Source: Asterionella formosa (taxonomy: Eukaryota). Taken from it: a stretch of DNA of 52,300 nt. Each line of letters begins with the position of its first letter. Position 1 is the stretch's first letter. A program made the translations under genes and the position numbers. The notes under the pieces were generated by a model, which saw only the letters and a list, made by a program, of their open reading frames with translations, did no database searches and was not told the origin of the DNA. Below are positions 3,270-48,365 of the stretch, piece by piece. The DNA is taken from contig NKIB01013746.1 of the NCBI GenBank assembly GCA_002256025.1, positions 1 through 52,300 on the forward strand, read 5' to 3'.

Positions 3270-3835
3270 CCCATTTCAGTATTCCAATATAACTTGGTAT
3301 AATTTGGTGTCATTTTCATTTAGGAAATCAGTGTCATCAAGTTCAGGATGGAACTGTGGTGGTGCAGGTACATCAAGTTTAGTCTTGAACATTGCTTTGA
3401 GTGGTCCATACTATGTTGCTTCAATGACTGGTATGGCCTTTTCTAGGTAATCCTCAGCAGAGATGAACCAGGCTTCACTCCCGTTATCCAACTGTTGTTT
3501 TCCAATAATAGCTCAAAGTTATCTAGTGGGGGTCCCACATCTTTGAGCCGAGAAAGGAATGGTGTAAAGGAATGGTGGTTCCGCAAATGTGGTGTTGATG
3601 ATTTGTAAGGGATACTCTGAAATGCACAAAATGTCGTCCACATACACTAAGATGTACTTATAATATTCAAAACCATTTGATCTTCTTGCTTCACAGTACC
3701 ACATGTCAGGGTTCAAGTAGTAATGTGGGATAAAGTGCAAGTCCCATAAGGTAGAGGGAAAATGTGTACGCCGTGCTACACCGGCCGGAACTCGTCCTTA
3801 GGCCATATTGGGCCCTAACAATGATGGCGATTTCT
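3270..3835 (-). mobile_element. Ty1/copia (diatom CoDi-like) reverse transcriptase remnant
   Basis: IVRAQYGLRTSS, NPDMWY...YYKYILVYVDDILCIS (YVDD), and downstream PPQFHPELDDTDFL...LYQ; several frameshifts. Confidence 0.85.
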
Positions 3836-4399
3836 GTTTACGCAATATATCATATACCCACCAATTGAAAGCTGGTTGATCATCGATGTGATTGTCAATG
3901 GAATAATTTGCAACTTCGACAGCGTTGGTTTCTTTTAACTCGTTTAGTGCATACGCCGTTTATGGCACTTTTTCGAATTTATATCTACAGTGACGTTAAA
4001 CAAAACCTTATTTCACTTATCGAATAATTATGTGATCATACCAATAATTATGTGTGCTCGTGACAATATATGTTGACCAACTAGCCATCGGGGCAGAATA
4101 AAAGCGAAATTATGCTGCTCCGCTGCAATATGCTGCTGCTTTCAACATATAATGAACGAAAGAGCTGCCAATTCCGATTCACTTATTATTTTTTTCTGCT
4201 CTGACATATTTCTTTGATCTCAACTGGCAAACATCAACACATGTAAGAGGAAGATTCACACAGTAGAATTCAGCACACATAGTAGTAGTTGCTTTTGTAG
4301 ACATATTTTTTAGTCATTGTTGATTGTAGAGTTCACAATAGCCTAACAGATTAGAAATAAAGCACCGTTGGTCCTTGTTGAGAATCGCTGAGCATTGCA

Positions 4400-5790
4400 T
4401 GTCGCCTTAGTGAGGACGTCGAAAGTAAAATGTATAAAAAGAAGCAAAGGATGAGTAGAAATCAACGATGGAATTCGTAAAATTCTTTAGGAATAGTTGT
4501 TGCATATTTGCATGTCGCTGTAGTGAGTGGAAATTGAGATGTGCCACAATGGCCTTCTCCTCTTCGTATCAGCTACAATAGTTTACAGCGATAGCTTGAA
4601 CAAGCACAATATAGAAAAAGAAGCAGAGGAGGAGCAGCTGTCAACGATTGAAATCATAAAATTGCTTAGAAACAGCTGTTGCATATTTTGACATTCAATG
4701 CATGTTTCCATAGTGAGGAGTCAAAATTGAGATGTGCCGCAATGGCCTTCTCCATTTCGGAGCAGCTACAATGAGTCTACAGCGATAACTCTAGCAAGCA
4801 CAATATAGAAAAAGAAGCAAAGGATGAATAGCTGACAGCAATTGAAATCGTAAATTCGTTAAGAAACAGCTATTGCATATTTTAATATTCAATGCATGGT
4901 GTCGCTGTAGTGACTCGAAATTGAGATGTTCCGCAATGGTCGTCTTTTCTGAGCAGCTAAAAATAGTCTACAGCGATAACTTTAACAAGCACAATATAGA
5001 AAAAGAAGCAGAGGAGGAGCAGCTGTCAACGATTGAATTCATAAAATTGTTTATTTACAGCTGTTGCATATTTAACCTTACATGTCGCCGTAGTGAGTCA
5101 AAATTGAGATGTGCCGCGATGGCCTCCTCCATTTCGGAGCAGCTACAAATATTTTACAGCGATAACTCTAGCAAGTACAGCAAAGAAAAAGAAGCAAAGG
5201 ATGAGTAGCTGTCAACGATTGAATTTGTAAAATCATCACTTAGAAACAGCTGTTGCATATTTCAACATTCAATGGCGCTGTTTGTCGCCATAGTGAGTCA
5301 AAATTGAGATGTTCCGCAATGGCCTTCTCAGTTTCGGAGCAGCTACAAATAGTCTACAGCGATAACTTAATCAAGAACAATATAGAAAAAGAAGGAGAGG
5401 AGGAGTAGCTGTCAACGATTGAATTCGTAAAATTGTTGAGGAACAGCTGTTGCATATTTTAACCTTCAATGCATGTCGCCATAGTGAGTCAAAATTGAGA
5501 TGTGCTGCAATGGCCTTCTCCGGTTTGGAGTAGCTAGCAAAAGTCTGAAGCAATAACTTTAGCAAGCACAATATAGAAAAGAAGCAAAGGATGAGTAGCT
5601 GACAACAATTTAATTCGTAAATTCGTTAAGAAACAGCTGTTGCAGCATATTGCAACATTTATTTTATGTCGCTGTAGTGAGTCAAAATTGAGGTGTGCAT
5701 GCCGCAATGGCATTCTCCTTTTCCGATCGGCTAAATTACATCTATATTGATAACTGTAGCAATAACAAATTGGATGTAAAGGCAAGGGCC
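4400..5790 (+). repeat. Tandem satellite A, ~190 bp unit, ~7 copies
   Basis: Anchor TTGAG(A/G)TG recurs at 4534, 4727, 4921, 5104, 5304, 5495 and 5688. Confidence 0.95.
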
Positions 5791-6079
5791 AACGAGATGA
5801 AGACTATCAGCTTCATTGAATTCAACCACTACATAACCTGTATTTTTCGCAATATTTTGCACTTTTCTGCACATCACCAGTCAATACACTCCAAAAATAT
5901 TCGCTGATGTCTGATTTGACCAATAAAACTCTTAGAAAATTAGTAGATGGATGCATTTCGGTAGAGAATAATAACTTTTGAGTTTTGGTGCATTCCTGCT
6001 GATGTAATAACTATCATCACGGGATACTAGCACATCCTATGGTAGTAAATCAAAAATGAGAAATGCCACAATTGCCATC

Positions 6080-7930
6080 TACAAATCCTAATGCCTCCTT
6101 TGATCAATATATGTTCATTATGAGTGTATCGACATTTGCCTTGACGGTATCATTGATTTTGTGTACATCTAATACAATGCTAGAGAGAAATCGGCCTTAA
6201 TTGGATAAGAAAGATTGAGCACTGATGATCAGTCCACCACCACCGAAAATTTACACACCAGCCATCCTGATGACCAATTTGATCAATATATGTTCATTCT
6301 CAGAATATCGACATTCTCCATGACGACATTGATCTCATGTACATCGAATAGTATGCTGGATAGAAATCAGCCTTAAAATGGCGGAGAAAGAGGGTTTGGA
6401 ATTTCTGTTGCTACAGCACTGGTTATGCAGCAGTCCACAGTAGTACCAAAAATTTACACACTATCCTGATGACTTATTTGATCAATTTATGTTCATTCTC
6501 AGAATATCGACATTCGCCATGACGAAATTGATCTTATGTACATCGAATTGTATGCTGGATAGAAATCAGCCTTAATATGGCGGAGAAAGAGGGTTTGGAA
6601 TTTCTGTTGCTACAGCACTGGTCATGCAGCAGTCCACAGCAAGCACCGAAAATTTACACACCATCCTGATGACCAATTTGATCATTATATGTTCGTTCTC
6701 AGAATATCGATATTCTAAGTGACGACACTGATCACATGTACATTGAATACTATGCTGGATAATAACCGGCCTTAAAATGGCGGAGAAAGAGGGTTTCGAA
6801 TTTCTGTTGCTGCCGCAGCACTTGTGATGCAGCAGTCCACAGCAAGCACCAAACAATTACACACCATAATTATGACCAATTTGATCATTATATGTTCGTT
6901 CTGAGAATATCGATATACTGAGTGATGGCACTGATCTCATATACATCGAATACTATGCTGGATAGAAATTGGTCTTAAATTGGTGGAGAAAGAGAATTTG
7001 GAATTTCCGTTGCTACAACACTGATGATCATTCCACAAGCACAGAAAATTTACACATCATAATGTCTCCTTTGATAAATATGTGTTTGTTCTGAGAATAT
7101 CGACATTCGAAATGACAACATTGAGCTTGTGTACATCGAATACTATGCTGGATAAAAATCGGCCTTAAAATGGTGGAGAAATATGGTTTGGAACTTTTGT
7201 TACCACAGCACTGATGTTCAGTCCACAGCAAGTACCAAAAATTTACACGCCATCCTGATGACCAAATTGATTAACATTTGTTCGTTCTCAGAATATCGAC
7301 ATTTGCCATGACGACTTTGATCTTGTGTACATCAAATACTTTGCTGGATAGAAATCAGCCTTAAATTGGTGGAGAAAGATGGTTTGGAATCTCCGCCGCT
7401 GCTACTGGCTGGTCATGCAGCAGTCCACAAACTCCGAAATTTTACACACCATCCTGATGAACAATTTGATCATTATATGTTCGTTCTGAGAATATCGATA
7501 TACTGAGTGATGGCACTGATCTCATGTACATCGAATACTATGCTGGAGAGAAATTGGCCTTAAATTGGTTAAGAAAGATTGTTTGGAATTTTTGTTGCTT
7601 CATCACTGATGATCAGTCCACAAGCACCGAAATTTTACACATCCTAATGACCAATTTGATCAATATATGTTTGTTCTGAGCATATTGATCTTCGGAATGA
7701 CGTCACTGCCCTCGTGTACATCGAATACTATGCTATATAGAAATCGGCCTAAAATCGGTGGAGAAATATGTTTTGGAATTTTGGTTGCTACAGCACTGGT
7801 CATGCATCAGTCCACAGCAAGCACCGAAATTTTACACATTCTGATGCCTCCATTGATCAATATATGTTCGTTCTGACGAGCATATCAATATTTGACATGA
7901 CCGCATTTCATTCGTGAACATCAAATACTA
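6080..7930 (+). repeat. Tandem satellite B, ~191-200 bp unit, ~9 copies
   Basis: Anchor CATCCTGATGACCAATTTGATC (or variant) recurs near 6262, 6461, 6661, 6862, 7056, 7250, 7449, 7639 and 7836. Confidence 0.95.
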
Positions 7931-19179: not shown

Positions 19180-20770
19180 TGCTTGATAGAAAGCAGCGTT
19201 AAATTGGCGAAGAAAGATGGTTTGGAATACAGTTCATGCAGCAGCCCACAAGAACTGAAATTTTACACATCCTGATGACCAATTTGATCAATATATGTTC
19301 ATTCTGAGAATATCTACATTCACCATGACGGCATTGCTCTCGCGGACATTGAATACTATGTTGAATAAAAGTCGGCTTTAAATTGGTGGAGAAAGGTGGT
19401 TGGAATTTTTGTTGCCACAGTACTTATGATCATTGCACAGCAAGCAACGAAAATTTACACACCCTCTTGGCTGATGACCAATTCGATTAATATATGTTCG
19501 TTCTGAGAATATTGATATTCGAAATGACGGCAGTGATCTCCTGTACATCGAAAACTATGCTGGATACTAGAAATCGGCCTTAAATTGGTGGAGACAGATG
19601 GTTTGGAATTTTTGTAACGACAGCACTGCCTAATGATCAGTCCACAAGCACAGTAAATTTACACATCCTGATGTCGCCTTTGATCAATATATGTCCGTTC
19701 TAATCATATCAACATTCTATATGACTGCATTGATTTCTTGTACATCAAATACTATGCTAGATAGAAAGCGGCCTTAAATTGGTTGAGAAGGGTTGTTTGG
19801 AATTCTTGTTGCCACAGCTCTGATGATCAGTCCACAAGCATCCGAGAATTTACACATCCTGATGCCTCCATTGATCAATAGATATGTTTATTCTAAGAAT
19901 ATCGACATTCTCCATGACAGCATTGATCTCGTGTATATCGAAGCCACAGCACTTACAATCAGTCCACAAGCAACGAAAATTTATTTCACATCCTGATGAA
20001 CAATTTGATCAAAATATGTTCGTTCATAGTATATCGACATTCATTACGACGGCATTGATGTCATGTTCATCGAATACTATGATTGATATAAATTTGAATT
20101 AAATTGGTGGAGAAAGATGGATTGGAATTTTTGTTGCCACAGCACTGATGATCAGTCCACAAGCATCCGAAAAATTACACATCCGGATGCCTCCTTTGAT
20201 CAATATATGTTCGTTCTGATCATATCAACATTCGACATGACTGCATTGATTTCGTTTACATCAAATACTATGCTAGATAGAAATCGGCCTTAAATTGGTT
20301 GAGAAGGGTTGTTTGGAATTTTTGTTGCTTCTGCACTGATGATCAAGCCATCCTGATGACCAATTTGATCAATGTATGTTCGTTCTGAGCGAGCATATCT
20401 ACATTCGAAATATCGGCATTGATCTCGTGTAAATGGAATACTATGCTAGATAGAAATTGACAATTAATTGGTAGAGAAAGATGGATTGGAATTTTGGTTG
20501 TTAAAGCACTGGTCATCAGTTACAGCAGACACCTAAAATTTAAACATCCTGATGCCTCCTTTGGACAATATATGCTCGTTCTGAGAATATCGACATTCGA
20601 CCAGGAGCCTTTGATTTCGGGTACATCAAATAATATATTAGATAGAAATCGGCATCAAATTTGTTGAGAAAGAAAATGAATTGGAATTTAGGTTGCTACA
20701 GCACTGGTCATCAGTCCACATCAAGCACCAAAAACTTTTACACATCCTGATGACGAATTTGATCAATACT
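19180..20770 (+). repeat. Stand-alone array of satellite B, ~8 copies
   Basis: Same unit as 6080-7930 (CACATCCTGATGACCAATTTGATCAATATATGTTC...GGTGGAGAAAGATGGTTTGGAATT); no satellite A or terminus adjacent. Confidence 0.95.
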
Positions 20771-22370: not shown

Positions 22371-23579
22371 AGAAAAAGTATCAATATAAACTATATAGCG
22401 TTGCGATTAATTTGATTGATTTTGCGATTGTAGCTAGAATTTTTTAAACGTTGATTGGTTACACATATTTATTTGTTTGACTAGCATATATATTTGTTTA
22501 ACCTTGAGGTATTAATGTGATCAAAGTAAAGATAAAATGGGAGCGAACTAACAGAATTAATGGTAGTCAGAGTGAAGAACATTTGTGAATGGAAATGTTG
22601 CGAATTGTAGAGAAAAGTACCGTATTATAGAGATTATTACTGATCAAATTTTTCTTCCTGTTGCCAAAAAATATTGCCAGTTGGCCCCAAAAGTTATGTG
22701 GGTTTCTAAAATAATTATGGAAGTTGTCGAAACTATTTTAGTTCACTCCGTTTATTGTATGATGCATCATATTTTTTATGTGATGTCATACCCTTAAATT
22801 ATGTACATAGCTAAATTCGTCACATTGGGCCACCCAAATAATTAATTTGGGTGATCATATTTGACTAGCGTTTTTTGTGGTGGCTGCACCAGTAATCGGC
22901 GTTGTAGATGTTGGGGGTAGCAGGAAACCAGTCTCAGACTGGACCAAAGTAGCCTTGTAACAGAACAAAGCTGCTAAGAAACAATCAGCAGCCTCCACAA
23001 AAACCACGCAGATGAATATGATTCACAATATTTGATTCAGCGGTGAACAAAAAACGATGGGGAGGGTTTCTTATCTTTAAACTGTTCGGTGACTCCACAG
23101 AATTTCCTCAACTGGACTCAAACCAATCATGATTAACTTCATTTATAAGCGCCTTAAGACTACTCAAGTGTTACTAGTAGGGTAGCCCGCCTGGCGCTTC
23201 CTGGCATTGATAGCCTACTAGGTTGTATAAAAATCTTAACCTACCCAGTATCAAGCCAACAAACATGGTGACTTTGGGCGCTGCAAGGCGGGGAAAGGGT
23301 GGATACACTCTCTCGAATGAGAGCAGCTAAGGGAAATTATGATGTGCTGTAAATGCCATATTCTGGCACTGCTGAGTTAATCTGTCCCCACATCTTGATG
23401 ACTGAGGGGAAGTCAGATGGCTTGGTTTGATCTTTTAATGAGGCATTTATTTGCCTCCCATATGTTTGCCTTTTTTGTTGTATTTATGGCAGACTCTGAT
23501 AATATTGTACAGCTTTAGTATCTGTTTGGATCAAAATGAAACATGGTGACATGATCATCATGACCGACTTTTCTTGAAT

Positions 23580-23885
23580 GAATAATGCATCTTATTCCAG
23601 CCATTTTGTCAAGCTCCTTGAGTTTCTTGCTGTGAGTTTCTTGTTGTTTCTGTTGATTCTTTCATGTGTTTGTAGCTCACAATGGCATATGCTGTAGTTC
23701 TTATTGTGTAGCTCAAAGCACCAGGGCAGTGCAGACCCGATTCCGATGCCAGGACATCGACAAATGCGCTCTTCAATTCAATGATGCATGTTGTTGCATT
23801 CCATTCATTTTCGTCAAGCTCCTTGAGTTTCTTGTTGTTGCTGTTGATTCTTTCATGTGTTTGTAGCTCATTATTGCATACAGTA
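23580..23885 (+). repeat. Partial tandem duplication, ~205 bp period
   Basis: GTCAAGCTCCTTGAGTTTCTTG...CTGTTGATTCTTTCATGTGTTTGTAGCTCA at ~23607 and ~23812. Confidence 0.8.
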
Positions 23886-24181
23886 TAGAGAACACCGACA
23901 ACGTGTGGAGTCAAGGTCCTCCATCCATTATATCTCCACCAACTCATGCAATCTCCTCTGCAACAAGGCAGGGGCAGCTATACAGAGGGGTCAACCACCA
24001 GAAACACACGTCCTTGAGGTAATCATGCAAAAAAGGCCAGGATACATCACCATGGGCAACACAACTCAAGTGGTACTAGTTATGTCAGTGAATTCCTGGT
24101 GTACTTTCAAGAATCAAAACGTCTGTACAACCCCTCCCCCCGCACACACCAGGACCGCAAAACAACCTAACTACAGGTCCA

Positions 24182-24240
24182 TGCCAACTGATGAAGCCCC
24201 TTCAGGCGAAAAGTAAAATTAGTCTCATTACTTTTTGGCA
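24182..24240 (+). ncRNA. Type I hammerhead ribozyme, copy 1
   Basis: Stem I TGCCAA/TTGGCA; core CTGATGA; extra A; stem II GCC-CCTTCA-GGC; GAAA; stem III AGTAA/TTACT; NUH = UUU; predicted cut 24234/24235. Confidence 0.85.
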
Positions 24241-24313
24241 ACTTCAGTAGTCACCTCATTGTCGATGGATAACAGTCATTGTAGCTCTCATCTTCACCTA
24301 ATCCTTTACAAAT

Positions 24314-25500
24314 ATGACCGATGCATCCAATCCACAACCTTTTCTACTTCCAGCATTGAAACGCGCTCGTTTCTCCAATGATACTGAGCCAAATAAGACT
24401 CCAAACGCCGCGGGGCGTTTGGCCTCTTCAATCGGCATTGTGACGCTCCACCCAACATTGAAACAAATCGCAGAGTTTCATCTAAACAAATTCATGAAAC
24501 TTTACGCTCAACAAGTGAAACAAGAAGAAAACATCATAAAGCTGAATACAACAGACTTCTTACCACGCTAAATGAACGGCTGAAACTAATACATTTAAGG
24601 ACCTTTCCTCAGAAACCGACGCCATTGTTGCCTCTTTCTCTACAGCTATCAAAGAAAAAATTAAACTTACTGCAGCACTCGAACTCAAAACCACGAAGAC
24701 TGCAATTGCAACCCACATTCTTGATAGTCTAACTATCTTAGCTCAAGGAAGCATTCTAACAATCACCACAGAAAATACCATCTCTTATGAGATGATATTG
24801 GATGTTATTAATTCCGTCATGTGAAAACCAGCAATTCAAGAACTGGTCAACGCTGAAACAACAAATGCTGCAACCTATCTCTACAATCTCCTTTCCCCAA
24901 CAGGTTATACTCAAGACCAACTAGTGTACTGTCACAATCTGACTCACAAATCAACCTAAAGTCAACAATTAATGAAACAGTCATACCAACGTTCAAACAA
25001 TCAACTCTATAAATGTATGTCAATTCACACAACACGTTTGACAAAACAAACATAACCAATAAACAGAAACTCCGTATGGAATCCTTTGCCAAAATGACAC
25101 TCTTTGACAATACTGCCACACTAGCAACCATGGAATTCGACAAAGAACAAAGTATAGAACCTAATCATCTTTCTAAATCAATCAATGACAAAGTAAACAA
25201 AGCAACATTGTCAATGATGAAAAATTTTGCTAAATGAAGGGAAAAATCAAAAAACAACTCAAGAGGGGCAACTGTAACAATGCTAAAACATGGAAAGAAA
25301 CCTATAGCTAGACAAAACCACCAAGACGACTTCCAGAAAGAAAACCGACCAAAGCGCCTCACTAAAAAAGAAAAAACCAACCAGTCACAACAAAACTGTT
25401 GACTCAAACAAAAACAAAGCCGGTGTTATCGAATACCTCAACAGACAGCAAAAAATCCTCCAAATTATTGACATCATAGAAGAAGAAGAAATAGCCAAGA
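24314..25500 (+). pseudogene. ORF1 of the Penelope-like element (coiled-coil/basic), disrupted
   Basis: Starts MTDASNPQPFLLPALKRARFS 13 nt after the left repeat; same-strand fragments continue (KQKLRMESFAK...SKNNSRG) up to the RT; stops and frameshifts. Confidence 0.55.
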
Positions 25501-25589
25501 AACATCTTCAATGCATAAATTCCACTAAAAACGTATCCATCAGCAACCCAGAAAAATTTATATCCTATAACACAAACAAACTTCTTCAA

Positions 25590-27480
25590 AATTTACCGTC
25601 ATGGCTGTACTTCTCAAGACCAAATAACATTGCATATCACAACCTTACAGCATCTTCAGAAACAGCTCTACTCGGCATCAAATCGCTCCTTGGGCTAGGT
25701 CTAAATTTTTGCATAACGCCAGACATTTACCAAAAAGTCAAGATGTTGCTGTCAAAAGATTCAACTCAGACATATCAACGAAATTCTTCTCTGCAGGCTC
25801 TGAACCATTGCCCCCAACAAAACTCTTTATTCGTTCCAACTGCTGGTCACCTCCTCATAATGAGATTCCAGCCGAATTACGTGTAAGAATCGACACATTC
25901 AAACACACACTCCCAAGAATCTTTCAACAAAAACACCGTTGACCCAACCTCCTACCTTCACAACAAGCAGTACGCACTTGAGTCACTCAAAAACAATGAA
26001 AAACTCATTGTTGTCCGTTGTGATAAAAACCTCGGCCCAGCCATCATCAAATGATCTTGATACATTAACATGGCTGGCTCTCAACAATCACCTCTTGATC
26101 TTAAATAAAGATACTTATCAACTTTCTGAAAGACAAGCTGAAGGGAAGAATAAAGGCAATCACTAAAATGATGACAAATTTCATCCTGAAACACTTCAAA
26201 CCTAAGGAAACAACATCGACATTCCTAAAACGATCCCTACAAATATGACCCATTTGCGTACTTCTACCCTCCTGGCGAAAGTACATAAAACACCACTTAC
26301 AACTTGACCCATCATCAGTGTCAGTGGAAGCATCTGCCACAGTCTAGGTAAATTGGATTGATGTCACCCTTCAAAAAATAACTCAACATTTCCCATTTAC
26401 CCTCTCAAGTTCCTTTGAGCTTGTCCATGATAAATGCTCCATGAATAACGTTTCATCAACTGCAACCTTATTCACTATGGACGCAATTTCTATGTACACT
26501 AACATAGACAGCACAACCCATGCACTGACTGTCCGTCATTAATAAATTTCTACAAATCGACAGACCAGACATTTGCCTTAACGAAAATATAAACATTGAC
26601 ACTCTCATAAATGCGCTCGAAATCATCATGCGACACAATATATTCAATTTTGGCAATACATACTGGATCCAAACATCTGGAACAGCTATGGGAACACTCC
26701 TGGCACACATATGCTACCCTTTACTTTGCAATCCACGAAATACAAACCATCCCACAATTTCATCAAATAATTTTTTATCGAAGATGAAATCGAAGATATA
26801 TATTGACGATTGCTTTATAATCTGGGTCCCTACATCAACTAACCCAATCGAGGATCACAAATCATACAACTCCTTTATCAGTTTGATGAACAAATTTGGC
26901 ACACTCAAATGGAATGCAGAATCAAGAAAACTATCAACAACTTTCCTGGATCTACCATTTCTATCAACCTACACACCCGTTCTATTGATACAACATTATT
27001 CGAAAATCAATGAATCCTTATCTTTACATACTGCCACACAGCGCACACCCCCAGGGATCATCTCAGGTATTATTCAACGAATACGATCATACCACCTCAC
27101 TAAGGTTAAAAAAATATCAACCCTGCAATCCACTACTTTTACAGCCGCCTCCGAGCCAGAGGCTACCTTGCTAAAATCCTTACACCCATCTTTAATAAAT
27201 ACATCAAACAAGTTTACATATTAAAAAATCGGACACTAAAGAAACGGACAAGAATGCAGAACAATGTGTGTTCCCTACACATGCCATTCCCTTAACAACC
27301 CTCCCTCATCTCACAAATAACGTCTATTTCGAGCCACTATATTTTCCCCGAAGAAAGAACCACCGCTTACTTCACTACGGAATTTCTCAGAACACCACTG
27401 TACAATCCAACCGCTGATCATTGCCTATAATCGACCAAAAAATATCGGTAATTATACATCACCACGAAAACTGAGATCAA
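25590..27480 (+). pseudogene. PLE-type reverse transcriptase, disrupted
   Basis: RPNNIAYHNLT, SLLGLGLNFCITP, CDKNLGPAII, PIISVSGS, LFTMDAISMYTNID, NIFNFGNTYWIQTSGTAMGT, YIDDCFIIW, FLDL, HSAHPPG, and terminal IIAYNRPKNIGN. Confidence 0.9.
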
Positions 27481-27676
27481 CAATCACCCCAGTCAGTACT
27501 CACCTACTTACAACCCAAACTGATAGTGAACCGTTAGCATTACCATCAACTCGGTCTGTGCTCCTTTCCTCCACTGTCAACACCACTCAAATTCCAGGTG
27601 CACTTTCAAGACCCAAAATGTCTGTACAAACCCCCGCACACACCAGGACCAACAAAACAACCTTACAACAGATCCA

Positions 27677-27735
27677 TGCCAACTGATGAAGCCCCTTCAG
27701 GCGAAAAGTAAAATTAGTCTCATTACTTTTTGGCA
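27677..27735 (+). ncRNA. Type I hammerhead ribozyme, copy 2
   Basis: 59 nt identical to 24182-24240; predicted cut 27729/27730. Confidence 0.85.
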
Positions 27736-29384
27736 ACTTAAGTAGTCACCTCATCGTCGATGGATAATAGTCAATGTAGCTCTCATCTTCACCTAACAAA
27801 GGACAACACTCAAAATTTCTCCGCCTCAAACATCACTGCAATCAGTGCTCCTAAGTCCCTCCAAGTACTCACTGGACATCATACAACTGAAACAAGACCT
27901 GATTGCCCTTCAAGAACAAACAAAACATTGAGGGGACTAATATGACAACATAAATGAACAATAATAGCTAATACATTTATAATTCCAAGGAAAAATGGCG
28001 ACCCTAAACAACCATCAGTTTAATGGAATAAAACTAATGCAATGCATCATGTTTATGAATTTCGTCGTTGATATCATTGACTGCCCTAAGATTGAACATT
28101 TTTTGACAAAATTCTATGATCTAAGGCGTTCCCAGGCAATTTTCTGTCAAAAATATAAATACTGAAGCATTCATGTATGATCTTTTGTCCTTTCTAAAAA
28201 TGTTTCAGAACCTGTTCAAGAAACTATTCGTAGTCTCTTTTGTATAAATTTCTAGTGTCATATTTACAGTTTGACTATGGAATTCAGGTTTTTGAAAAAT
28301 TGAAAATAATCTCTTCTGCTTTGCCCCTCATTCATTTCCATTTGAATAAATTAACAAAAATAATGCTCCAAAAAATCCTCTCAAAATGCAATAAAATCGA
28401 AGGAAAAATCCAAGATAATTGAAGAATATTGGCTTTGAAAATTCCAAAACATGTTGGGTATTTGCTAATCATGCAATGAAATAAAGCAATCCTTGTACAA
28501 AATGAATCGCAATATATCATGTTGAATGTGGCTTTGTAAAGTCACAGAAAGACCATTAACAAGAAAAGATCAATCATTTTCTTATGTAAAATATATTTTA
28601 TATGTATTCTGTACTAAATTCATAAAATGAATTGGTTTCTTTTACTTTAAACATGATTTTTGGAGGATGAACTTCATACATTTATTGTTCTTAAACAAGC
28701 TAGCTATTTGGAAATACATTTCTTTTCCAATTGTTAAATCTATTTTATGCTTAAATTATGGGTTACACAATCGAATCTGAGAAGTTCACTTTGTGAAGTT
28801 CACACAATTACCTGAGATTATTGATATGTTTTTTAAATTTGCCATTTCTTCTATATATCGTCTCACTGCTAGTTGCCGACATTTTTCTTACATCACGATC
28901 TAGACATACTAGATGTCGGCGGCTGCTTTTCAATTTATCGGAATGATATGATTGCCCTCACTTTAAATGGTTGCCTTCCATCCGTGGTAAATATGTTTTG
29001 GCTCAAGATTTTGTCTTGCTGGAATGAAAAGCAGAACAAGAAGGATTTGAGATTTTTCCAACATACGATTATGACTTCCAGGGAAGTATGATAAGAAACG
29101 CAAGGTTATCTAAATGGCGAAACGACCAGCAATAGCAAGTTTAGTCAACCAAATACTCTAGCTCAAAGTTGCTACTGTCATAGGCCTACTACCTTGTCAG
29201 CAATCAATCAACGATCGATCAACAAGCATGATCAAAGTATGTGAGTGCAATCAATTAACTTAGTTTCTATCGCAGGTGTATTCAAATTAACACTCATACT
29301 AAGTTTTAATTTGTACTTACATATGAATTTAGCTTTGAAATGGCGAAATATCGAGCAATAGCAAGTACAGTCAACCAAATACTC

Positions 29385-29835
29385 TGTTGAAAAGGTCCGT
29401 ACTCCTTCCCGCGGGCTGGGTCTCTCTTAACATGGACTCTTATGTGCTCGTAGTACTACCTAGTACCACTTACTTTCTCTCTCTTCTATGCTTCTAGCCT
29501 TCCTGCTAGATAGACTGATTGACCTTCTTGTCAATTAACAAACTCTTACCTCGATTGATAATCTAAAATTAAATTAAAAGCAAACGAACTGTTTCCTTTC
29601 CATGCATCTTTGCTTCCCACAAAGTCGTTCTAAGACTCTCTTTGAGTTTCCACTTGACATATCCATATAAATCTTCAATCTTTGATCTCGTTAGATAGCT
29701 GATTGACGTGGCAATGCAATAATCGACTCGTTCGATTACAATCGAGTCCACAATCCTTGTGACTCGGGCTAATATTCTTGACAATATATCTTTGAAAGTG
29801 ATTGGGAAAGTAGAGACCTCTCAATTTGGCGACGC
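29385..29835 (+). mobile_element. Probable LTR (TG...CA, ~439 bp) followed by a PBS-like TGGCGAC
   Basis: Begins TGTTGAAAAGGTC and ends GACCTCTCA (imperfect inverted termini); internal TATAAA; followed by ATTTGGCGAC. No TSD or internal domain seen. Confidence 0.4.
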
Positions 29836-35540: not shown

Positions 35541-36815
35541 CAGGATGGTTTGTAAATATTCGGTGCTTGCTGTGGACTGCTGCATGACCAGTGCTGTTGC
35601 AAAGGAAATTCCGAACCATCTTGCTCCACCATTTTGAGGCTGATTTCTATCTACTAGTATAGTATTCGATGTACGCGAGATCAATGCCGTCATGTCGAAT
35701 GTCGATGTTCTCAGAATGAACATATATTGATCAAATTGGTCATCAGGATGGTGTGTAAAATTTCGGTGCTTACTGTGAACTTACCATCAGTGCTGTGGCA
35801 ACAAAAATTCCAAACCATCTTTCTAAACCAATATAAGGCCGATTTATATCCAGCGTAGAATTCGATGTACACGAGGTCAGTGCCATCATTTCCATACCTC
35901 CTTTCTCCACAAATTTAAAGCCGACTTTTATCCAACATAGTATTTGATGTACATGAGATCAATGCTGTCATTTTGAACGTCGATATTCTCAGAACAAATA
36001 TATATTGATCAAAGGAGACGTCAGGATGCATGTGTTGATTTGCTGTGCTTGTGGACTGATCATCAGTGCTGTGGCAACAAAAATTCCAAACCACCTTTCT
36101 CCACCAATTTAAGGCCGATTTCAATCCAGCATAGCATTCGATGTACACGAGATCACTGCCGTCATTTCGAATATCGATATTCTCAAAACGAACATACATT
36201 GATCAAATTGGTCATCAGAATGGTGCGTAAAATTTCGGTGTTTGCTGTGCTGGACTGCTGCATGACCAGTGCTGTTCCAACAAAAATTCCAAACCATCTT
36301 GCTCCACCATTTTAAGGCTTATTTCTTTCCAGCATAGATTTTGATGTTCACGAGATCAATGTCGTCATGGCCAATGTCGATATTCTGAAAACGAACATAT
36401 ACTGATCAAAGGAGGCACCCGGATGCGTAAATTTTCGGATGCTTGTGGACTGATCATCAGTGCTGTGGCAACAAAAATTCCAAATCATCTTTCTCCACCA
36501 ATTTAAGGCCCATTTATATCCAGCATAGTATTCGATGTACATGAGATCAATGCCGTTATGGCGACTGTTGATTTTCTGAGAACGAACATAAAAGGAGGTA
36601 TCAAGATGTGTAAATTTTGAAAATTTTCGGTGATGGTTGACTGATATGATCAATGCTGTAGAAACGAAAATTCAAAATCATCTTTCTTTCTCCACCAACT
36701 TAAGGCCGATTTCTATCCAGCATAGTATTCCATGTACAAAGGATCAATGCCATCAAGGCGAATGTAGAAATACTCATAATGAACATATATTGATCAGAGG
36801 AGGCATCAGGATGTG
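35540..36815 (-). repeat. Satellite B, inverted, ~6.5 copies
   Basis: GATCAAATTGGTCATCAGGATG and GATCAAAGGAGGCATCAGGATG units. Confidence 0.95.
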
Positions 36816-37129
36816 TAGATGGCGATTGTGGCACTTCTCATTTTTGATTTACTACCATACTAGGATGTGCTAGTATGCCGTGATGATAGTTAGTACATCA
36901 GCAGGGGCGCACCAAAACTCAAAGCTATTATTTTCTACCAAATTGCATCCATCTACTAAACTGCTAAGAGTTTTATTGGTCAAATCAGACATCAGCAAAT
37001 ATTTTGGGAGTGCATTGACTGGTGGTGTACAGAAAAAGTGCGAAATATTGCAAAAATACAGGTTAGCTATGGAGTGGTTGATTTCAATGAAGTTGATAGC
37101 CCTCATCTCCTTGGCCCTTGCCTTTACGA

Positions 37130-38410
37130 CCAATTTGTTATTGCTACAGTTATCAATATAGATGTAATTTAGCCGATCGGAAAAGGAGAATGTCATGATT
37201 GCGGCACATCTCAATTTTGACTCACTATGGCGGCGACATACAATGAATGTTAAAAATATGCAACAGCTGTTTCTTAACAACTTTACGAATTAAATTGTTG
37301 TCAGCTACTCTTTCTTTGCTTTTTTTACTATATTGTGCTTGCTAAAGTTATCGCTTCAGACTATTGCTATCTGCTCCAAACCGGAGAAGGACATTACGGC
37401 ACATCTCAATATCGACTCACTACGGCGACATGCATTGAATGTTGCAACAGCTGTTCCTAAACAATTTACGAATTCAATCGTTGACAGCTGCTCCTCCTCT
37501 GATTCTTTTTCTATATTGTACTTGTTAGAGTTATCGCTGTAGAATATTTGAAGCCGCTCCGAGAAGGAGACGGCCATTGCGGCACATCTCAATTTCGACT
37601 CACTAGCTACGGCGACATACATTGAATACTAAAAATATGTATAAACGAACTAACAAATTCAATTGTTGTCAGCTACTCATCCTTTTTTAATAATTTTTCT
37701 ATATTGTACTTAAATAATTTTTCTATATTGTACTTGCTAAAGTTATCGCTGTAGACTATTTGTAGCTGCTCCGAAACGGAGAAGGCCAATGAGGCACATC
37801 TCAATTTTTACTCACTACCACGGCGACATGCATTGAATGTTAAAATATGCAACAGCTGTTTCTAAACAATTTCACGAATTCAATCGATGAAAGCTGCTCA
37901 TCCTTTGCTTCTTTTTCTATATTGTACTTGCTAGAGTTATCGCTGTAGACTATTTGTAGCCGCTCCGAAAAGGAGACGGCCATTGCGGCACATCTCAATT
38001 TGACTCACTATGGCAACATGCATTGAATATTAAAAATATGCAACAGCTGTTTCTTAACGAATTTACGTATTCAATTGTTGTCAGCTACTCATACTTTCCT
38101 TCTTTTTCTATATTGTACTTGCTAGAGTTATCGCTGTAGACTATTTGTAGCTGCTCCGAAACGGAGAAGGCCATTGCGGCACATCTCAATTTTGACTCAC
38201 TACGGCGACATGCATTGAATACTAAAAATATGCAACAGCTGTTTCTTAACGAATTTACGAATTCAATTGTTGACAGCTACTCATCCTTTCCTTCTTTTTC
38301 TATATTGCACTTACTAGAGTTATCGCTGTAGACTATTTGTAGCTGCTCCAAAACGGAGAAGGCCATTGTGGCACATCTATATTTCGATTCACTACTACGG
38401 AGACATGCAA
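37130..38410 (-). repeat. Satellite A, inverted, ~7 copies
   Basis: GGCACATCTCAATTTTGACTCACTA recurring every ~185-220 bp. Confidence 0.95.
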
Positions 38411-39463
38411 TGCTCAACGATGCTCAACGAGGACCAACAGTGCCTAATTTCTAATCTGGCAGGCTATTGTAATCTCTACAATCAACAATGACTAAACAAG
38501 GTGTCTACAACATCAACTACTACGACGTGTGCTGAATTCTACTGTGTGAATCTTCCTCTTGCATGTGTTGTTATTTGCCAGCAGTTGAGATCAAAGAAAT
38601 ATGTCGGAGCAGAAAAAATAATAATTGAATCGGAATTGGCAACTCTTTCGTTCATTATATGGTGAAAGCAGCATAATATTGTAGCGGAGCAGCATAATTT
38701 CGCTTTTATACTGTCCCGATGGCTAGTTGGTCAACATATATTGTCATGAACACACATAATTATTGGAGTGATCACAGAATTATTCGATAAGTGAAATACA
38801 TTTTGTTTAACCCGAATAAATTAGGGAAAAAGTAACATAATATTTCAAAAAACCCATAATATTTTAGAAAACTAACATAATATCTAAAAAAGTAGCATAA
38901 ATAAGTCACTTTAGACATAAATTCGAAAAAGTGCCATAAACGGCGTCTTAGATGTACTTCTGATTCGTCAATGACACAATCAACACAAGTAGGGCACGGA
39001 ACATAAGTATATGGAAGAGGATTGGCATTCACTAGTAGGGGCAATCCAACAGAAAACATGGTTGATTGTTGCATTGTTCGACGTTATTTTGTTGCTCAAA
39101 GGATGCCTAGTACACGATATGCTCGAGGTATATAACTAGAATCTATACATGTGTTCTCGTGGGGAGTAAAATTATGTCTAAATTGAGCAATGTAGAAATA
39201 ACATAAATGTCGTCATTCTTCTTGAAATGGAACTCTGTCAATGTGGCGCCATTTTCTACTCAGTTAAAATATTCAAACAGGTACTTGCATCATGGGAATG
39301 CACAGAAACAAATTCCCTGTTCCGCGTCAATTTTACAACCCTAGCGATTTTTTCTTCAAACTAGGGTTACGCCGGGGCCGCAACCTTGATTTGATCATAT
39401 TTCTAAATGACTTCTTGCTGATGTCACGTCTTCGATGCACCATCATAGACCTATTCATATTTC

Positions 39464-43633: not shown

Positions 43634-43803
43634 CCGGTACCTGATACTAGGTACCAGGTACCGTACACTGGTACCTGGACCTGGTACCAGGTACCCGGAG
43701 TAACAGGTCACCAGGTACCTGGTACCTGGTACCTGGTACCAAGTACCAAGTACCAGGGTACCTGGTACCTGGTACCTCGCATACCGGTACCTGGTACCAG
43801 GTA
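43634..43803. repeat. Dense CCTGGTA/TACCAGG heptamer array in both orientations
   Basis: ACCAGGTACCTGGTACCTGGTACCTGGTACCAAGTACCAAGTACCAGGGTACCTGGTACCTGGTACC. Confidence 0.9.
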
Positions 43804-43958: not shown

Positions 43959-46900
43959 TTAGTGATACAAGCGGCTAATGGCATTGTGGCAGCCTATAAG
44001 GTGGGAATTCCACGACATTGCATGTTCGTGTTTCGCCAGTTTTGCTTCTTGGAGATCATGGAAGTCGTCCCATTTCAACTCACGGTCTTCCAATAAATAC
44101 ATGTAGGCATTCAAACTCTTTCCCATTACCTCAGATATAGCACTGAACTCATTGATTTTTTCGTCGATATATTCGTTTACAAGTTTGGAAAGCATAGCAG
44201 AGAGAGAGGTAAGTTGTGAAGACTCGCCGTTTCCACAAAAAAAGATCTTCAGGGCTTCTGTCTTCAGGTGTTCAAGTAGAACGACTTCTTGGTCCTTAAA
44301 CGCAGCTAGTCTCTCCTTTTGTTCTTCGACAAAGGCATTCCGATCACCGTCAGTCTTGGCCCCAAGAAAAATCTTCCACTCTACTTCGTACCAGCGACTG
44401 AAATTTTGCCGACGACGATGGGATCCTTGATCGTAATCACAAAGGGTGCTACAATACGTGGCGATCCAGATAAAGGCTCGTGAGGCATCATTGCCATAAA
44501 TTACTCCAGTGGGTAATGCTGATTGGGATTGTGCACTAGCCTCAAAACGGGATTCGGTTCTGCTTTCTGAAATGTCCCCAACCCAAAGAGAGGGAGTTTC
44601 TACGTTTTCAGCAGCGATTGCTTCGTTGTTATGCTCAATATTTTTACTCGTCAACATTGTTCTGGCCATTTTGGGAACAATTGCTTGCTCGACATGCTCA
44701 ATCGTTTGACTCGTTGAAATTGTTTTGGCAATGTTTGGAACAGGTTCTGCTCTGCTTGCACGACCAAGCCCGGTAAACGACGAAGGAAATGCTACATTTG
44801 CAGACTCGCCTTTCATATGTAATGAATCCTCATTGACTTCAAGTTCGTCACCATCTAGATCTGACACATTTTCTTTTGCTGTTCCGGAAGGCCCAATAAG
44901 GCCGTGAATGAAATATGCCGGACGAAGTTTTTTCTTCCTTGCACTTCCCCGCCCAGGGACAAACAATCCACGTACTGGATCCCAGCCCATGCCCGGTGGG
45001 CCTCGACCACGTGGACGGGCAAACGTGCCATCACCCTTTTTCTGAGGATCCCGTGATGGACGGTAGCAACCATCGTCTGTCATTCGCTCCTTGTATGAGT
45101 TTTCCATAATTGGTCTTTTGACTTTCATTGATATCAGATCCTCCTTCAATTGCACACCAACACTAAGTAGCATCTCTGCATCCTCTTGATTCGGTCTGTC
45201 CAATGGCACATTTGCAACTGGAAATGTGGAATTTTCAAAACGGGTGACTTCTTGCCCACGTTCGGAGACCAACGTTGCTTGTTCTGCAGGTATTTTCGTC
45301 GGAAGGCTAATGACGATTGCTTCGCTAGGCACACTGGACTGACTTGGATACTGGTACGTAGCAGCACATATTGATTCTGCTACTGACGGAGGAGCCAGAC
45401 GCTTGCGCTTCTTTAATGGTATGTGACTTTGATCGTCCTCTGTTGAAAATGATTCATCTTCAATAGATTCGCTAGCCAACGGTTCAATAGCGACAAAGTT
45501 TTCCAAGACTTCGTTTTCTTCCCTAGAATGAGACGTGTATTGAGGAATAAGACCAAGCTGACGTCGCCGAAGCCTTTCAATGTAGACTATAATAGCCTTC
45601 TGCTCAGCATTGTTGTTCACAAGGTTATTGATTGCATGATTCGTGAACGACTTATTCTTTCTCCTTGCTGAAATCTTGTGGGCCAGAGCTTGAGATGCGT
45701 TCTTCACAACGACATCCCAATCGACCAGTTTCCATTCAAACGATCTAGTCTTGGTTGTTTTCACGTTTCCCCTGTTCCCCAGAAGTAAAAGCCTAGAAAG
45801 CTCCTTGTGTTCTTCTTTCAAGCCGAGAGCGATTGGGATCGATAATTTTCCCTCGTCAACATCACGAGTGCAAAAGGAGGGACCAAAAATTGGCCCTCCA
45901 TTGCTGTAGCTCTTCGTGGCTTCAGCCAAAAATGTTTCGAAACCATCACGAACATACTTGGACGAGATTAAGTTAGTTAGGGTGATAGTTTCGGTGATTT
46001 TGCTGGTTCGCTTTGAATTGCATAGCATTATGAGGCTCTCCGAAGCACCTGCTCGTTCCAGATGCTCCAATTTGATTTTTCCCCCACGACCAGCAGGAAC
46101 AATGTTGTACACAACCAGAAGTCTTGTCAGCTCAATAAGTTCTTGAGTAAGGTGACAATCGATCATAATGGGTACCTCCAAAGGTTTATTGTACTCGCTC
46201 TCTTTGACCACCAATGAAATTTCCCCGTATCGTCTCCTCCGTCCTGGAGTTTTGTGCGAGATGGAGTTTCCGTCATCGATACTGTCATCCAAAGGAATAT
46301 CCTTCTTCTTCCTTGGTCTTGACTTATAAGCATCTGAGACCCCAAAGCGTTGTTTAGCGATGCTATTTCGATATGCAAGGAAGGCGTCTTTCAGAGTTCC
46401 CTTCGGAATATATTGCCTTAGATGAAAAAGGCTATTCTCCACGAAAGTTTCAGCAAATTTTTTCCTTTTTTCTTTGATGACTTCTTGAAGATGGCCCGTG
46501 GTGTGAGCTTCGATATATTCCCAATCGGCTTTCTTGCTATTGTCTGATTTTGAGGCTACCCATGCTTCAGCTAGTTCTCTTGCCTCTGGACCCAATATAC
46601 TTGTATCCGGGATTTCGTCATTTGAGTACGAGTTACAATCTTCAGTGTTGTCGTCATTGTCGTCGTTGTCTTCTGAATCCCACTCCTCGTAGGACTGCTC
46701 GTCGGCTGCTGCTGCTGATGTTGGTGTATCTTTCGTTTGAAATGCGAACCCCAGGAGAGCAGCAACTGCCGACTGAGTAGCAGTCTCTTGGGTATTCAAT
46801 TTTGTTTCTACACCAGTGCTAAGAATTTTTTCAAAGTTTTTGTTTTGCATTGGTGCGTTCTCCTTGGAATTGGCGCTCGGTTTTCCTATGGCCACTCCTC

Positions 46901-47534
46901 CTTTTAGCCGCTCGTCAGTATTTCGTTGCGGCCATTGATTCGGTAAACAAAGTGAATCTGGCACACTCGGTATGCTATGCTCACGTGGATTTCGAAGAAA
47001 CTGGTTTCCAGCATAGACATGAGTGACCCTGTTTTCTTGGACCAGGTTTGCTCCCTGGTCGATCTTGCCCCTTGCTTCTGGACCAGCTAGTACCCTCTGG
47101 TCAGCCAGATGTAACAAGACTTCTGCAAGCGATGGTTCTGAATTCCGCTCCGCTAAAGCGTCTTCATCCCTGAAGGTTTCCTGCTTCTCGCTGTCGCTGT
47201 TGGAAATTAGGCCATTTGATTCTTTATCTTGTTCCGTAGAGTACTTCACGTGCGAAAAAATGGTGCCGTGAATGCTGGTAGACATGCTAGCCTTGATCGC
47301 AGAATCCACCAAAGCACTCGAGCTCGCTTTTGGTTTCGCCGCACTGATATCGTCGCTTGTGATTACAGAAACAGCCATCTCCCCTTTTTTCGCCGACATT
47401 GTGGTATCGTCGGTTCTCACCGGATCGGAATGGGATATCATTACTTTTGGTGCCGTTACGGTATTTCTAGCATGTATTTGCAATTCCGTCAATTGAGAGT
47501 ATGGTAGCACATTGGCTGCCTTACGGGAGGCCAC
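43959..47534 (-). CDS. Large uncharacterised, probably nuclear protein (~1190+ aa); likely has a short upstream exon
   Basis: 3.5 kb stop-free ORF; acidic tract; basic NLS-like runs; AT-hook-like RPRGR. Branch/acceptor CTCAC...CTACAG at ~47545 and an ATG at 47663 suggest a 5' exon. Confidence 0.8.
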   Translation of the reverse strand: MASRKAANVLPYSQLTELQIHARNTVTAPKVMISHSDPVRTDDTTMSAKKGEMAVSVITSDDISAAKPKASSSALVDSAIKASMSTSIHGTIFSHVKYSTEQDKESNGLISNSDSEKQETFRDEDALAERNSEPSLAEVLLHLADQRVLAGPEARGKIDQGANLVQENRVTHVYAGNQFLRNPREHSIPSVPDSLCLPNQWPQRNTDERLKGGVAIGKPSANSKENAPMQNKNFEKILSTGVETKLNTQETATQSAVAALLGFAFQTKDTPTSAAAADEQSYEEWDSEDNDDNDDNTEDCNSYSNDEIPDTSILGPEARELAEAWVASKSDNSKKADWEYIEAHTTGHLQEVIKEKRKKFAETFVENSLFHLRQYIPKGTLKDAFLAYRNSIAKQRFGVSDAYKSRPRKKKDIPLDDSIDDGNSISHKTPGRRRRYGEISLVVKESEYNKPLEVPIMIDCHLTQELIELTRLLVVYNIVPAGRGGKIKLEHLERAGASESLIMLCNSKRTSKITETITLTNLISSKYVRDGFETFLAEATKSYSNGGPIFGPSFCTRDVDEGKLSIPIALGLKEEHKELSRLLLLGNRGNVKTTKTRSFEWKLVDWDVVVKNASQALAHKISARRKNKSFTNHAINNLVNNNAEQKAIIVYIERLRRRQLGLIPQYTSHSREENEVLENFVAIEPLASESIEDESFSTEDDQSHIPLKKRKRLAPPSVAESICAATYQYPSQSSVPSEAIVISLPTKIPAEQATLVSERGQEVTRFENSTFPVANVPLDRPNQEDAEMLLSVGVQLKEDLISMKVKRPIMENSYKERMTDDGCYRPSRDPQKKGDGTFARPRGRGPPGMGWDPVRGLFVPGRGSARKKKLRPAYFIHGLIGPSGTAKENVSDLDGDELEVNEDSLHMKGESANVAFPSSFTGLGRASRAEPVPNIAKTISTSQTIEHVEQAIVPKMARTMLTSKNIEHNNEAIAAENVETPSLWVGDISESRTESRFEASAQSQSALPTGVIYGNDASRAFIWIATYCSTLCDYDQGSHRRRQNFSRWYEVEWKIFLGAKTDGDRNAFVEEQKERLAAFKDQEVVLLEHLKTEALKIFFCGNGESSQLTSLSAMLSKLVNEYIDEKINEFSAISEVMGKSLNAYMYLLEDRELKWDDFHDLQEAKLAKHEHAMSWNSHLIGCHNAISRLYH

Positions 47535-47714: not shown

Positions 47715-48365
47715 TACCGGTACCTGGTACCGTACCCGGTAAAGAATCTTCCTGGTACAGGCTGGTCTTGACTGTCCATCTTTACATAAATCTCTACGAT
47801 TAGCTCTAATATTGATGGATGCATTGTATGGCAATTCTAAATCGAAGGAACAGCCGAGTGCGGCACCTGGTACCTGGTACCAGGTGCCAGTGCTCCGTCC
47901 AAGGAGAGGAACCTATGGTGATGGTACCAGGTACCTGGTACCCGGTACCCGGTACCAGGTACCTGGTGCATGCCGGTATGCGGTATGTACCGGAACTTAC
48001 TACCTGTATGCACGATCCCGGATACCGGTACCTGGTACCGGATTGTCCTTATTTACTGTTAACCGGTACCTGGTACATGATGCAAGTAAAAAAATGCATT
48101 GACCCACTGGGAAATAATTCGAACTCTGAATGATTGACCCACCACTGACGATATAAAAAAACGTTTAGTTAAAAAAAATCATTCATTTTCTATGAGGTAC
48201 TGGTACCAGGTACCGTACCAGGTACCAGGTAAAACATACCGTCATATATATCCCATGCGCAAACAACTGGTAACAGGTACCAGGTTCTAGGTACACTATA
48301 GTATACCAGCTATGGTACTGGTACCTGGTACTGGTATAAACCGGTAGTCTACCAGGAGGTACCGG
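47715..48365. repeat. Extended CCTGGTA/TACCAGG/TACCGGTA field upstream of the large gene
   Basis: Clusters at 47715-47760, 47865-48075 and 48195-48365. Confidence 0.9.

Follow-up and report, generated by a model that had tools for sequence, protein, structure and literature searches.

The 52,300-nt stretch analysed here, positions 1 to 52,300 of contig NKIB01013746.1 in an Asterionella formosa assembly (GCA_002256025.1) and called the window below, carries on its forward strand at 24302-27796 a 3495-nt unit that we interpret, with a probability of roughly 0.88, as a single, old and dead insertion of a Penelope-like element (PLE) of a freshwater microbial eukaryote. The retroelement is Athena/Coprina-like, with two open reading frames (ORFs) and no endonuclease. 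From 5' to 3', the unit consists of ORF1, which is helical with a basic tail, a telomerase-like (TERT-like) reverse transcriptase (RT) without nuclease, approximately 130 nt of further sequence, a predicted hammerhead ribozyme and a 67-nt tail ending in CACCTAA. The identification as an endonuclease-lacking PLE is a confident one; as to the clade within these elements (Athena, Coprina or another), Athena/Coprina-like is meant as a description. The sequencing runs containing the stretch are freshwater and algal-culture metagenomes.

The unit is delimited by two direct repeats that form a pseudo-long terminal repeat (pseudo-LTR) pair. The downstream copy (27590-27796, forward strand) is the true 3' end of the unit, and its partner (24091-24301, forward strand) is a 5'-truncated duplicate of the terminal 211 nt, comprising the end of the RT 3' region, the hammerhead and the 67-nt tail. 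Pairwise alignment sets the boundaries at AATTCC (24091 and 27590) and CACCTAA (24301 and 27796), with a repeat spacing of 3494-3499 nt. Identity is 95% between blocks 24158-24301 and 27653-27796 (144 nt) and 86% between blocks 24091-24134 and 27590-27633, with a 20-nt block in between. Overall, blastn reports 90.6% identity over 212 columns, 20 of which differ. A partial upstream tandem copy of this kind is the usual pseudo-LTR structure of PLEs, and the element occurs once within the window (blastn). The insertion is considered old because the pseudo-LTRs have diverged by 9.4% and at least seven frame changes have accumulated: the RT homology shifts among all three frames at least seven times in 25539-27497, and in-frame stops are present. 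An earlier note on this DNA, made from the sequence alone, had already described a decayed copy in which direct repeats, each with a complete hammerhead, flank ORF1 and the RT; the repeat alignments and both hammerhead searches described below lead to the same picture. No target-site duplication was found, with no common 4-mer within 20 nt on either side of the element, and among the joints listed from DNA contigs, none skips the whole element as an empty site.

Remnants of the RT cover 25593-27686 (forward strand), and residues 1-629 of the RT encoded by the intact relative L016 align to 25593-27497. Three motifs can still be read on the forward strand, namely DKNLGP (26022-26039), YIDD (26799-26810) and, as the final conserved RT motif, AYNRPKNIGN (27423-27452). 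The longest open piece, 26529-27221, matched 710 proteins at E values up to 1e-3, 124 at 1e-10 and 3 at 1e-30 in a representative library, and 9 longer proteins in another database. Full-length relatives measure approximately 560-830 amino acids; their conserved start reads ...W(L/Y)YF.RP.N..., and they stop 10-40 residues past ...AY.RP.NL.N..SPR..., the window counterpart of which is AYNRPKNIGNYTSPRKLRS. Across 44 full-length relatives, the D, K, N, L and G of DKNLGP are each conserved to at least 90%; the DKG/DKN motif is named as diagnostic of PLEs by Craig et al. (2021, PMC8557442) and in the Ascochyta paper (PMC13159263). The AlphaFold model of P0004 (mean predicted confidence, pLDDT, 94.6) has Candida telomerase TERT (6zdq_A, E 2e-9) as its top fold match in the PDB. 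The nearest clusters in the ESM Atlas hold eukaryotic proteins of 600-740 amino acids and are commonest in Rotifera, the host group of Athena, which we take as a lead only.

Remnants of ORF1 with frameshifts and stops lie at 24315-25402 (forward strand, ATG at 24315), with homology to intact relatives over 24305-25219. The closest intact relative, L016, is one of 80 metagenome loci carrying the family; this 4157-nt contig has an exact terminal overlap of 509 nt, giving a 3648-nt unit that is collinear with the window across ORF1 and RT. Its layout comprises a hammerhead (698-751), the tail, ORF1 (836-2107, 423 amino acids) and the RT (2203-4137, 644 amino acids), the latter terminating soon after AYSRQPSLGN, and apart from overlapping frames there is no other sense-strand ORF of at least 80 amino acids. 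The window aligns with L016 ORF1 at 24305-24568 and 25013-25219 with 29-36% identity (tblastn and tblastx), and the motifs DF(I/L)PR and AT..ME..KEQS are common to the window and the ORF1 of the relatives. The latter further display an (F/I)P(R/H)S(A/L)R motif, long helices and a tail rich in lysine and arginine, of which recognisable pieces are left in the window. For L016 ORF1, AlphaFold (pLDDT 70.5) predicts an all-alpha protein with two helices of approximately 57-59 residues (109-167 and 235-291) and a disordered basic tail, and Foldseek returned no PDB match for this model at E values up to 0.001. An ORF of at least 120 amino acids lies upstream of the RT in 48 of the 51 loci having enough flank.

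A nuclease was sought across both ORFs. On the window, at E values up to 1, 14 of 15 forward-strand fragments had no Pfam family and the remaining one a chance-level DUF7054. Among the 25 listed of 28 Pfam families matched by the 44 relatives, GIY-YIG is absent, and the three unlisted families each concern at most one member at E values above 0.35. Sixty of 61 ORF1 or downstream ORFs matched no Pfam family, the exception being a PHO4 fragment in L029. As neither ORF offers a nuclease fold, the term endonuclease-less, used in the earlier note for an RT that ends at AYNRPKNIGN without a GIY-YIG domain, applies to the family beyond this decayed copy: the endonuclease is absent from the window fragments, the 44 relatives, the whole L016 unit with its ORF1 and 644-amino-acid RT, the 61 ORFs and the all-alpha ORF1 fold. 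As for the exception, L029 (unit length 6.9 kb) carries at 4841-5221, between the RT and the 3' hammerhead, a 127-amino-acid ORF matching the PHO4 phosphate-transporter family (E 4e-29), which is also found in L030; this is probably a piece of a host gene that was captured, and recalls the cargo of giant endonuclease-lacking elements.

The predicted hammerheads lie at 24182-24240 and 27677-27735 on the forward strand and are identical over all 59 nt. Both were matched by a structural descriptor and by a covariance model built from relatives (R1), with cores starting at 24188 and 27683 and predicted cuts after 24234 and 27729. The descriptor demanded CUGANGA, an optional extra nucleotide, a helix II of at least 3 bp, GAAA, a helix III of at least 3 bp closed by A15.1-U16.1, an H17 other than G and a helix I of at least 4 bp; over the window it matched twice on the forward strand and not at all on the reverse strand. 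In the predicted structure, helix I is formed by TGCCAA and TTGGCA (6 bp), the core reads CUGAUGA plus one extra A before helix II, helix II pairs GCC with GGC (3 bp) around a 6-nt loop and is followed by GAAA, and helix III comprises 6 bp beginning with A15.1-U16.1 around an 11-nt loop, with U as H17. The predicted core is that of a type I hammerhead, in which helix I is open and the other two are closed. The minimum-energy fold of the 3' copy shows all three helices; single-sequence fold z-scores are unremarkable (-1.0 and -0.35). The 59-nt motif has no differences between the repeats, compared with 20 in the other 153 columns (Fisher p 0.0013), which suggests that the ribozyme was perhaps still under selection during repeat divergence, for example if the repeats were copied from different templates. 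The open piece of RT frame at 27321-27686 stops at UGA UGA (27684-27689) inside the CUGAUGA box of the downstream hammerhead. In the sub-family of the window, the C-terminal tail of the RT may thus extend into the pseudo-LTR, a feature that is not conserved, with the L016 frame stopping approximately 209 nt earlier.

The relatives carry the greatest weight in the evidence. Applied to the 80 loci, the descriptor gave 18 matches in 17 loci on the RT-sense strand and none antisense; the matches share the architecture seen in the window, including the extra nucleotide in 16 of 18. As MAFFT lost the register in U and A runs when aligning the hammerheads, an alignment of five motifs (A5) and a model-based realignment were used instead, and R1 was built from these five relatives only, with the window excluded. 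On the window, R1 recovered exactly the two predicted sites at 31 bits (E 1.6e-6, rough calibration) and nothing more at E values up to 10. Searched together, the 80 loci and the window yielded 46 R1 matches at E values up to 1, of which 44 were sense and the two antisense ones overlapped sense matches; at E values up to 0.01, 25 of the 80 loci were matched, five of these being the training set. In the 46 aligned matches (40 distinct), 91.4% of cells are paired compared with 65.0% after shuffling, a level reached by none of 500 shuffles, and 19 of 21 pairs vary on both sides, with a covariation score of 0.515 against 0.06-0.10 for slid partners. The predicted helices are thus backed by covariation in the relatives. 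In the window, as in many relatives, approximately 80-100 nt separate the motif from the ORF1 start downstream of it, and L029, L057, L076 and L065 also carry twin hammerheads on both sides of ORF1 and RT. Near the contig end of L006 (4220-4262), a hammerhead-like motif with a 2-bp helix II and a GAAA loop was missed by R1; the hammerheads of the family are therefore more widespread than R1 indicates.

The 3' terminus of the unit appears telomere-like. CACCTAA occurs at the internal junction copy of the terminus (24295-24301) and at the outer end (27790-27796), both on the forward strand and both at the repeat boundary, the latter adjoining a flank that is near single copy by depth in run X2. 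CACCTAA looks like the remnant of a C-strand telomere-type repeat, cut down to one partial unit. A contig from run X7 tracks the tail to 27782, continues with a variant ending ACCTAACCCTAA and then passes into unrelated sequence, and L016 has ACCTAACCC at the equivalent position, approximately 20 nt ahead of the ORF1 ATG. Taken together, these ends suggest that the family probably keeps a telomere-annealing 3' module. A telomeric array is absent from both junctions, as the earlier note had stated: TTAGGGTTAGGG with up to two mismatches occurs three times in the window against 2.4 expected, none of them near the element, and Tandem Repeats Finder detected no telomere-type array in the window. 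The further statement that the site is non-telomeric stands insofar as no array occurs in these 52 kb, but has to be qualified in view of the telomere-complement-like end of the element and its counterparts in relatives. Among the 80 loci, tandem telomere-type repeats were found only in L006, as (CCCCAA)2 in sense orientation at 4008-4019, approximately 200 nt upstream of its hammerhead-like motif; single CCCTAA-like motifs after the hammerhead were too few for a test.

A life cycle can be proposed for active members of the family. A transcript covering more than one unit would be produced, the hammerhead could cut it approximately 80 nt upstream of the ORF1 start codon, and ORF1 and RT would be translated. 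The nuclease-less RT would then prime from an exposed DNA 3' end, either a telomeric overhang or a break, with the G-rich or broken 3' end annealing to the short telomere-complement that closes the tail. Copying of more than one unit, through a template jump, a tandem template or possibly a ligated circle, would generate the terminal repeats. The window copy would have landed on a non-telomeric or barely telomeric end, or been internalised later, and would then have gathered its frameshifts and stops. The annealing and extension steps and the copying of more than one unit follow the published model for endonuclease-lacking PLEs as it is summarised in PMC8557442 and PMC13159263, and internal initiation near the template 3' end, leaving a 'tail', is described in vitro for an endonuclease-bearing PLE by Frangieh et al. 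(2024, PMC11167929). In this scheme, one possible task of the hammerhead would be to trim read-through or tandem transcripts, so that their 5' end is defined and lies near ORF1. As 144 nt of the upstream repeat precede the cut site, the template of the window copy was not cut there.

Several points weigh against our interpretation. With regard to the RT, group II intron RTs and viral RNA-dependent RNA polymerases follow TERT closely in Foldseek E values, so that the fold alone does not place the protein; the family profile matched only a group II intron-like RT among PDB sequences (E 0.024), Pfam RVT_1 weakly matches just 2 of the 44 relatives and no window fragment, and the placement among PLEs is by motif and fold. 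With regard to the ribozyme, Rfam gave no hammerhead over the whole window at gathering score, only two chance-level small nucleolar RNA rows on 24000-27900 at E values up to 10, and no hammerhead family reaching E 1 on 12 relatives; as the motif is missed in the relatives as well, this hammerhead variant falls outside the Rfam models. Helix II has just 3 bp, an extra A follows CUGAUGA and the cleavage triplet is UUU; hammerhead sites of such a kind are cleavable, yet often slow. The alignment behind the covariation values was fitted to the model, training rows included, and so leans toward the structure; neither the strand bias nor the fact that the window sites were recovered independently hinges on it. 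Finally, the telomere-complement reading draws on three sequences with 5-12 nt each, including one lone contig end from run X7, the more distant subgroup L029, L065 and L076 has A/T-rich tail ends without a telomere-like motif, and non-telomeric holds for the 52.3-kb window only.

Two alternatives were considered alongside. The copy could derive from an endonuclease-bearing PLE whose GIY-YIG domain was deleted, for which its heavy decay and the short distance of approximately 130 nt from the last RT motif to the downstream repeat could be cited. However, the closest intact relatives, the L016 RT and P0001, likewise lack GIY-YIG and share the ...AYNRPKNIGNYTSPRKLRS-type tail, the 44 full-length relatives (428-762 amino acids) do not have this domain, and no N-terminal domain stands before the conserved RT start, which makes such a loss very improbable. 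It is harder still to credit that the hammerhead-like motifs are chance matches in an ordinary terminal repeat. The silence of Rfam and the unremarkable fold z-scores would fit this idea, but there are just two descriptor matches in the 104,600 nt scanned and both occupy homologous places, an independent model built on relatives recovers both sites, strand bias and covariation are seen across the relatives, and it is the motif itself that has stayed identical between diverged repeats.

A more substantial rival is a retrozyme-like replicon, in which both hammerheads cut and the unit RNA is ligated into a circle that acts as messenger and as rolling RT template; we regard it as unlikely. The predicted cut sites reproduce the cleavage coordinates of the earlier note, and the predicted hammerhead-to-hammerhead product, 24235-27729, is 3495 nt long, as it had proposed. 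Twin hammerheads one unit apart occur in the window and in the four loci named above, and 10 of 80 contigs (L006, L016, L018, L019, L032, L033, L040, L053, L059 and L069) have exact terminal overlaps of 35-509 nt, as unit-length circles or tandems would; such overlaps are equally expected from pseudo-LTRs or from tandem DNA copies of a multi-copy repeat. In L029 (6963-7096), the 66-nt tail is present twice in tandem, and the second, hammerhead-less copy starts at the cut site preceded by TT, as would be expected had the RT switched templates at the 5' end of an RNA that was already cleaved; of all loci whose cut site was parsed, however, only L029 has this footprint. The circular-template idea for PLEs has been in print since 2014 (PMC4209133). 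Against it, the basis is DNA, and the upstream pseudo-LTR of the window points to an uncut template. For an endonuclease-bearing PLE, cleavage is described as dispensable for insertion in vitro, and no RNA-seq reads ending at the cut site are reported (PMC11167929); Naiad PLEs are said to thrive without canonical hammerheads (PMC8557442). A ligated circle would recreate sequence already contained in each pseudo-LTR, and divergent RT-PCR over the 27729/24235 junction therefore cannot separate a circle from read-through. The most far-reaching combination would make the window copy a dead member of a large unnamed lineage of two-ORF endonuclease-lacking PLEs of aquatic protists, with the circular or template-switched hammerhead-to-hammerhead RNA as transposition intermediate, the L029 duplication as an in vivo cleavage footprint and non-telomeric ends used via a few telomere-like nucleotides. 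We hold this joint view to be more doubtful again; if true, the use of non-telomeric ends with a few nucleotides of homology would explain the interstitial window copy.

Returning to the dead endonuclease-lacking PLE, its surroundings were characterised by summed contig depth in run X2, all values being rough. Depth in the immediate flanks is close to single copy (about 770-950); relative to it, the element body reaches approximately 2-13 times and the hammerhead bins 12-25 times. The outer flanks (22500-23900 and 29286-29500) have hundreds to about a thousand times the immediate-flank depth and are therefore very high-copy host repeats. The element sits in a 35-kb stretch (approximately 4.0-38.8 kb) without any Pfam-recognisable ORF, bounded by inverted arms at 4009-7874 and 35656-38798 that enclose an interior of approximately 28 kb and are 78-93% complementary to each other in pieces of 165-396 nt. 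The arms are composed of a unique part and two satellite families with units of approximately 191-192 bp and approximately 199 bp, and a further array lies at 19242-20768; the block could be a giant element bounded by inverted repeats, or a heterochromatic or subtelomeric block. The consensus of the 199-bp satellite (6241-7874 and 19242-20768) contains CTGATGA and also CGAAAA, but was rejected as a hammerhead, as order and spacing are wrong and neither the descriptor nor R1 nor Rfam matched. Recognisable genes begin at 40 kb with PDX1/SNZ, a PX-Ysc84 protein and a RING protein. Arrays of the heptamer GGTACC(A/T) at 43636-43803, 47715-47967 and 48202-48231 lie on both sides of a 1191-amino-acid ORF (43959-47534, minus strand) that has no Pfam family.

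Compared with known systems, the element is closest in description to Athena and Coprina, which Gladyshev and Arkhipova reportedly presented in 2007 as endonuclease-deficient PLEs. It has in common with them a TERT-like RT with the DKN/DKG motif, the absence of GIY-YIG, direct terminal repeats and, close to the 3' end, a hammerhead with a spacer behind it and then what looks like reverse-complement telomeric sequence, vestigial in the window; an upstream ORF1 with long helices is found in Athena and Coprina-1_Alen as well. Unlike these elements, the window copy has no telomeric array next to it, and of the repeat at most one partial unit is left. The module of hammerhead, spacer and reverse-complement telomeric repeat is described for endonuclease-lacking PLEs in PMC8557442, and PMC13159263 presents the two-ORF Coprina-1_Alen, which has LTR-like repeats, and reports PLE copies that are scattered in sister isolates. 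Beyond the endonuclease-lacking PLEs that the earlier note names as described mainly at telomeres, scattered Coprina copies are already described, and so is PLE-X, for which Craig et al. (2021, PMC8557442) report canonical hammerheads and genome-wide or ribosomal DNA-targeted insertion. With PLE-X, the endonuclease-lacking group within Chlamys, our element shares the missing endonuclease, the hammerheads and, within the 52 kb of the window copy, the non-telomeric distribution, whereas the CxC motif and N-terminal extension of PLE-X were not seen in the family consensus, no formal test having been made.

The ribozyme itself also has precedents. Cervera and de la Pena (2014, PMC4209133) describe endonuclease-lacking PLEs of fungi and protists whose pseudo-LTRs hold hammerheads with a helix III of large size, report measured self-cleavage for one fungal example and propose ligation of the cut ends into circular templates. 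Compared by description, the predicted hammerheads of the window resemble these in being of type I, in a long stable helix III (monomer-type), in helices I and II that are short and show no recognisable contacts between their loops, and in their location. The variant with an extra A, a 3-bp helix II, a long helix III and a UUU cut site escapes the Rfam models, and R1 could serve its annotation. With the retrozymes, both the plant LTR-type and the animal non-LTR-type, the window shares hammerheads in both flanking repeats one unit apart, and a unit RNA with 5'-OH and cyclic phosphate ends would likewise be a ligation substrate. In contrast, retrozymes are non-coding, non-autonomous and 170-1000 nt long, and the window unit, at 3.5 kb and encoding ORF1 and RT, is not one of them. 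The link of PLE pseudo-LTRs to animal retrozymes is the subject of a 2026 preprint, and neither the circular-RNA idea for PLEs nor endonuclease-lacking hammerhead PLEs beyond telomeres are new. The finding is therefore real but ordinary, adding a decayed copy and, via its relatives, many intact metagenomic copies to the known endonuclease-lacking PLEs. Many aquatic metagenome contigs carry the family, with twin hammerheads one unit apart; it therefore offers material for the old question of what the hammerheads of PLEs do, and an interstitial copy with a vestigial telomere-complement bears on how nuclease-less elements find DNA ends.

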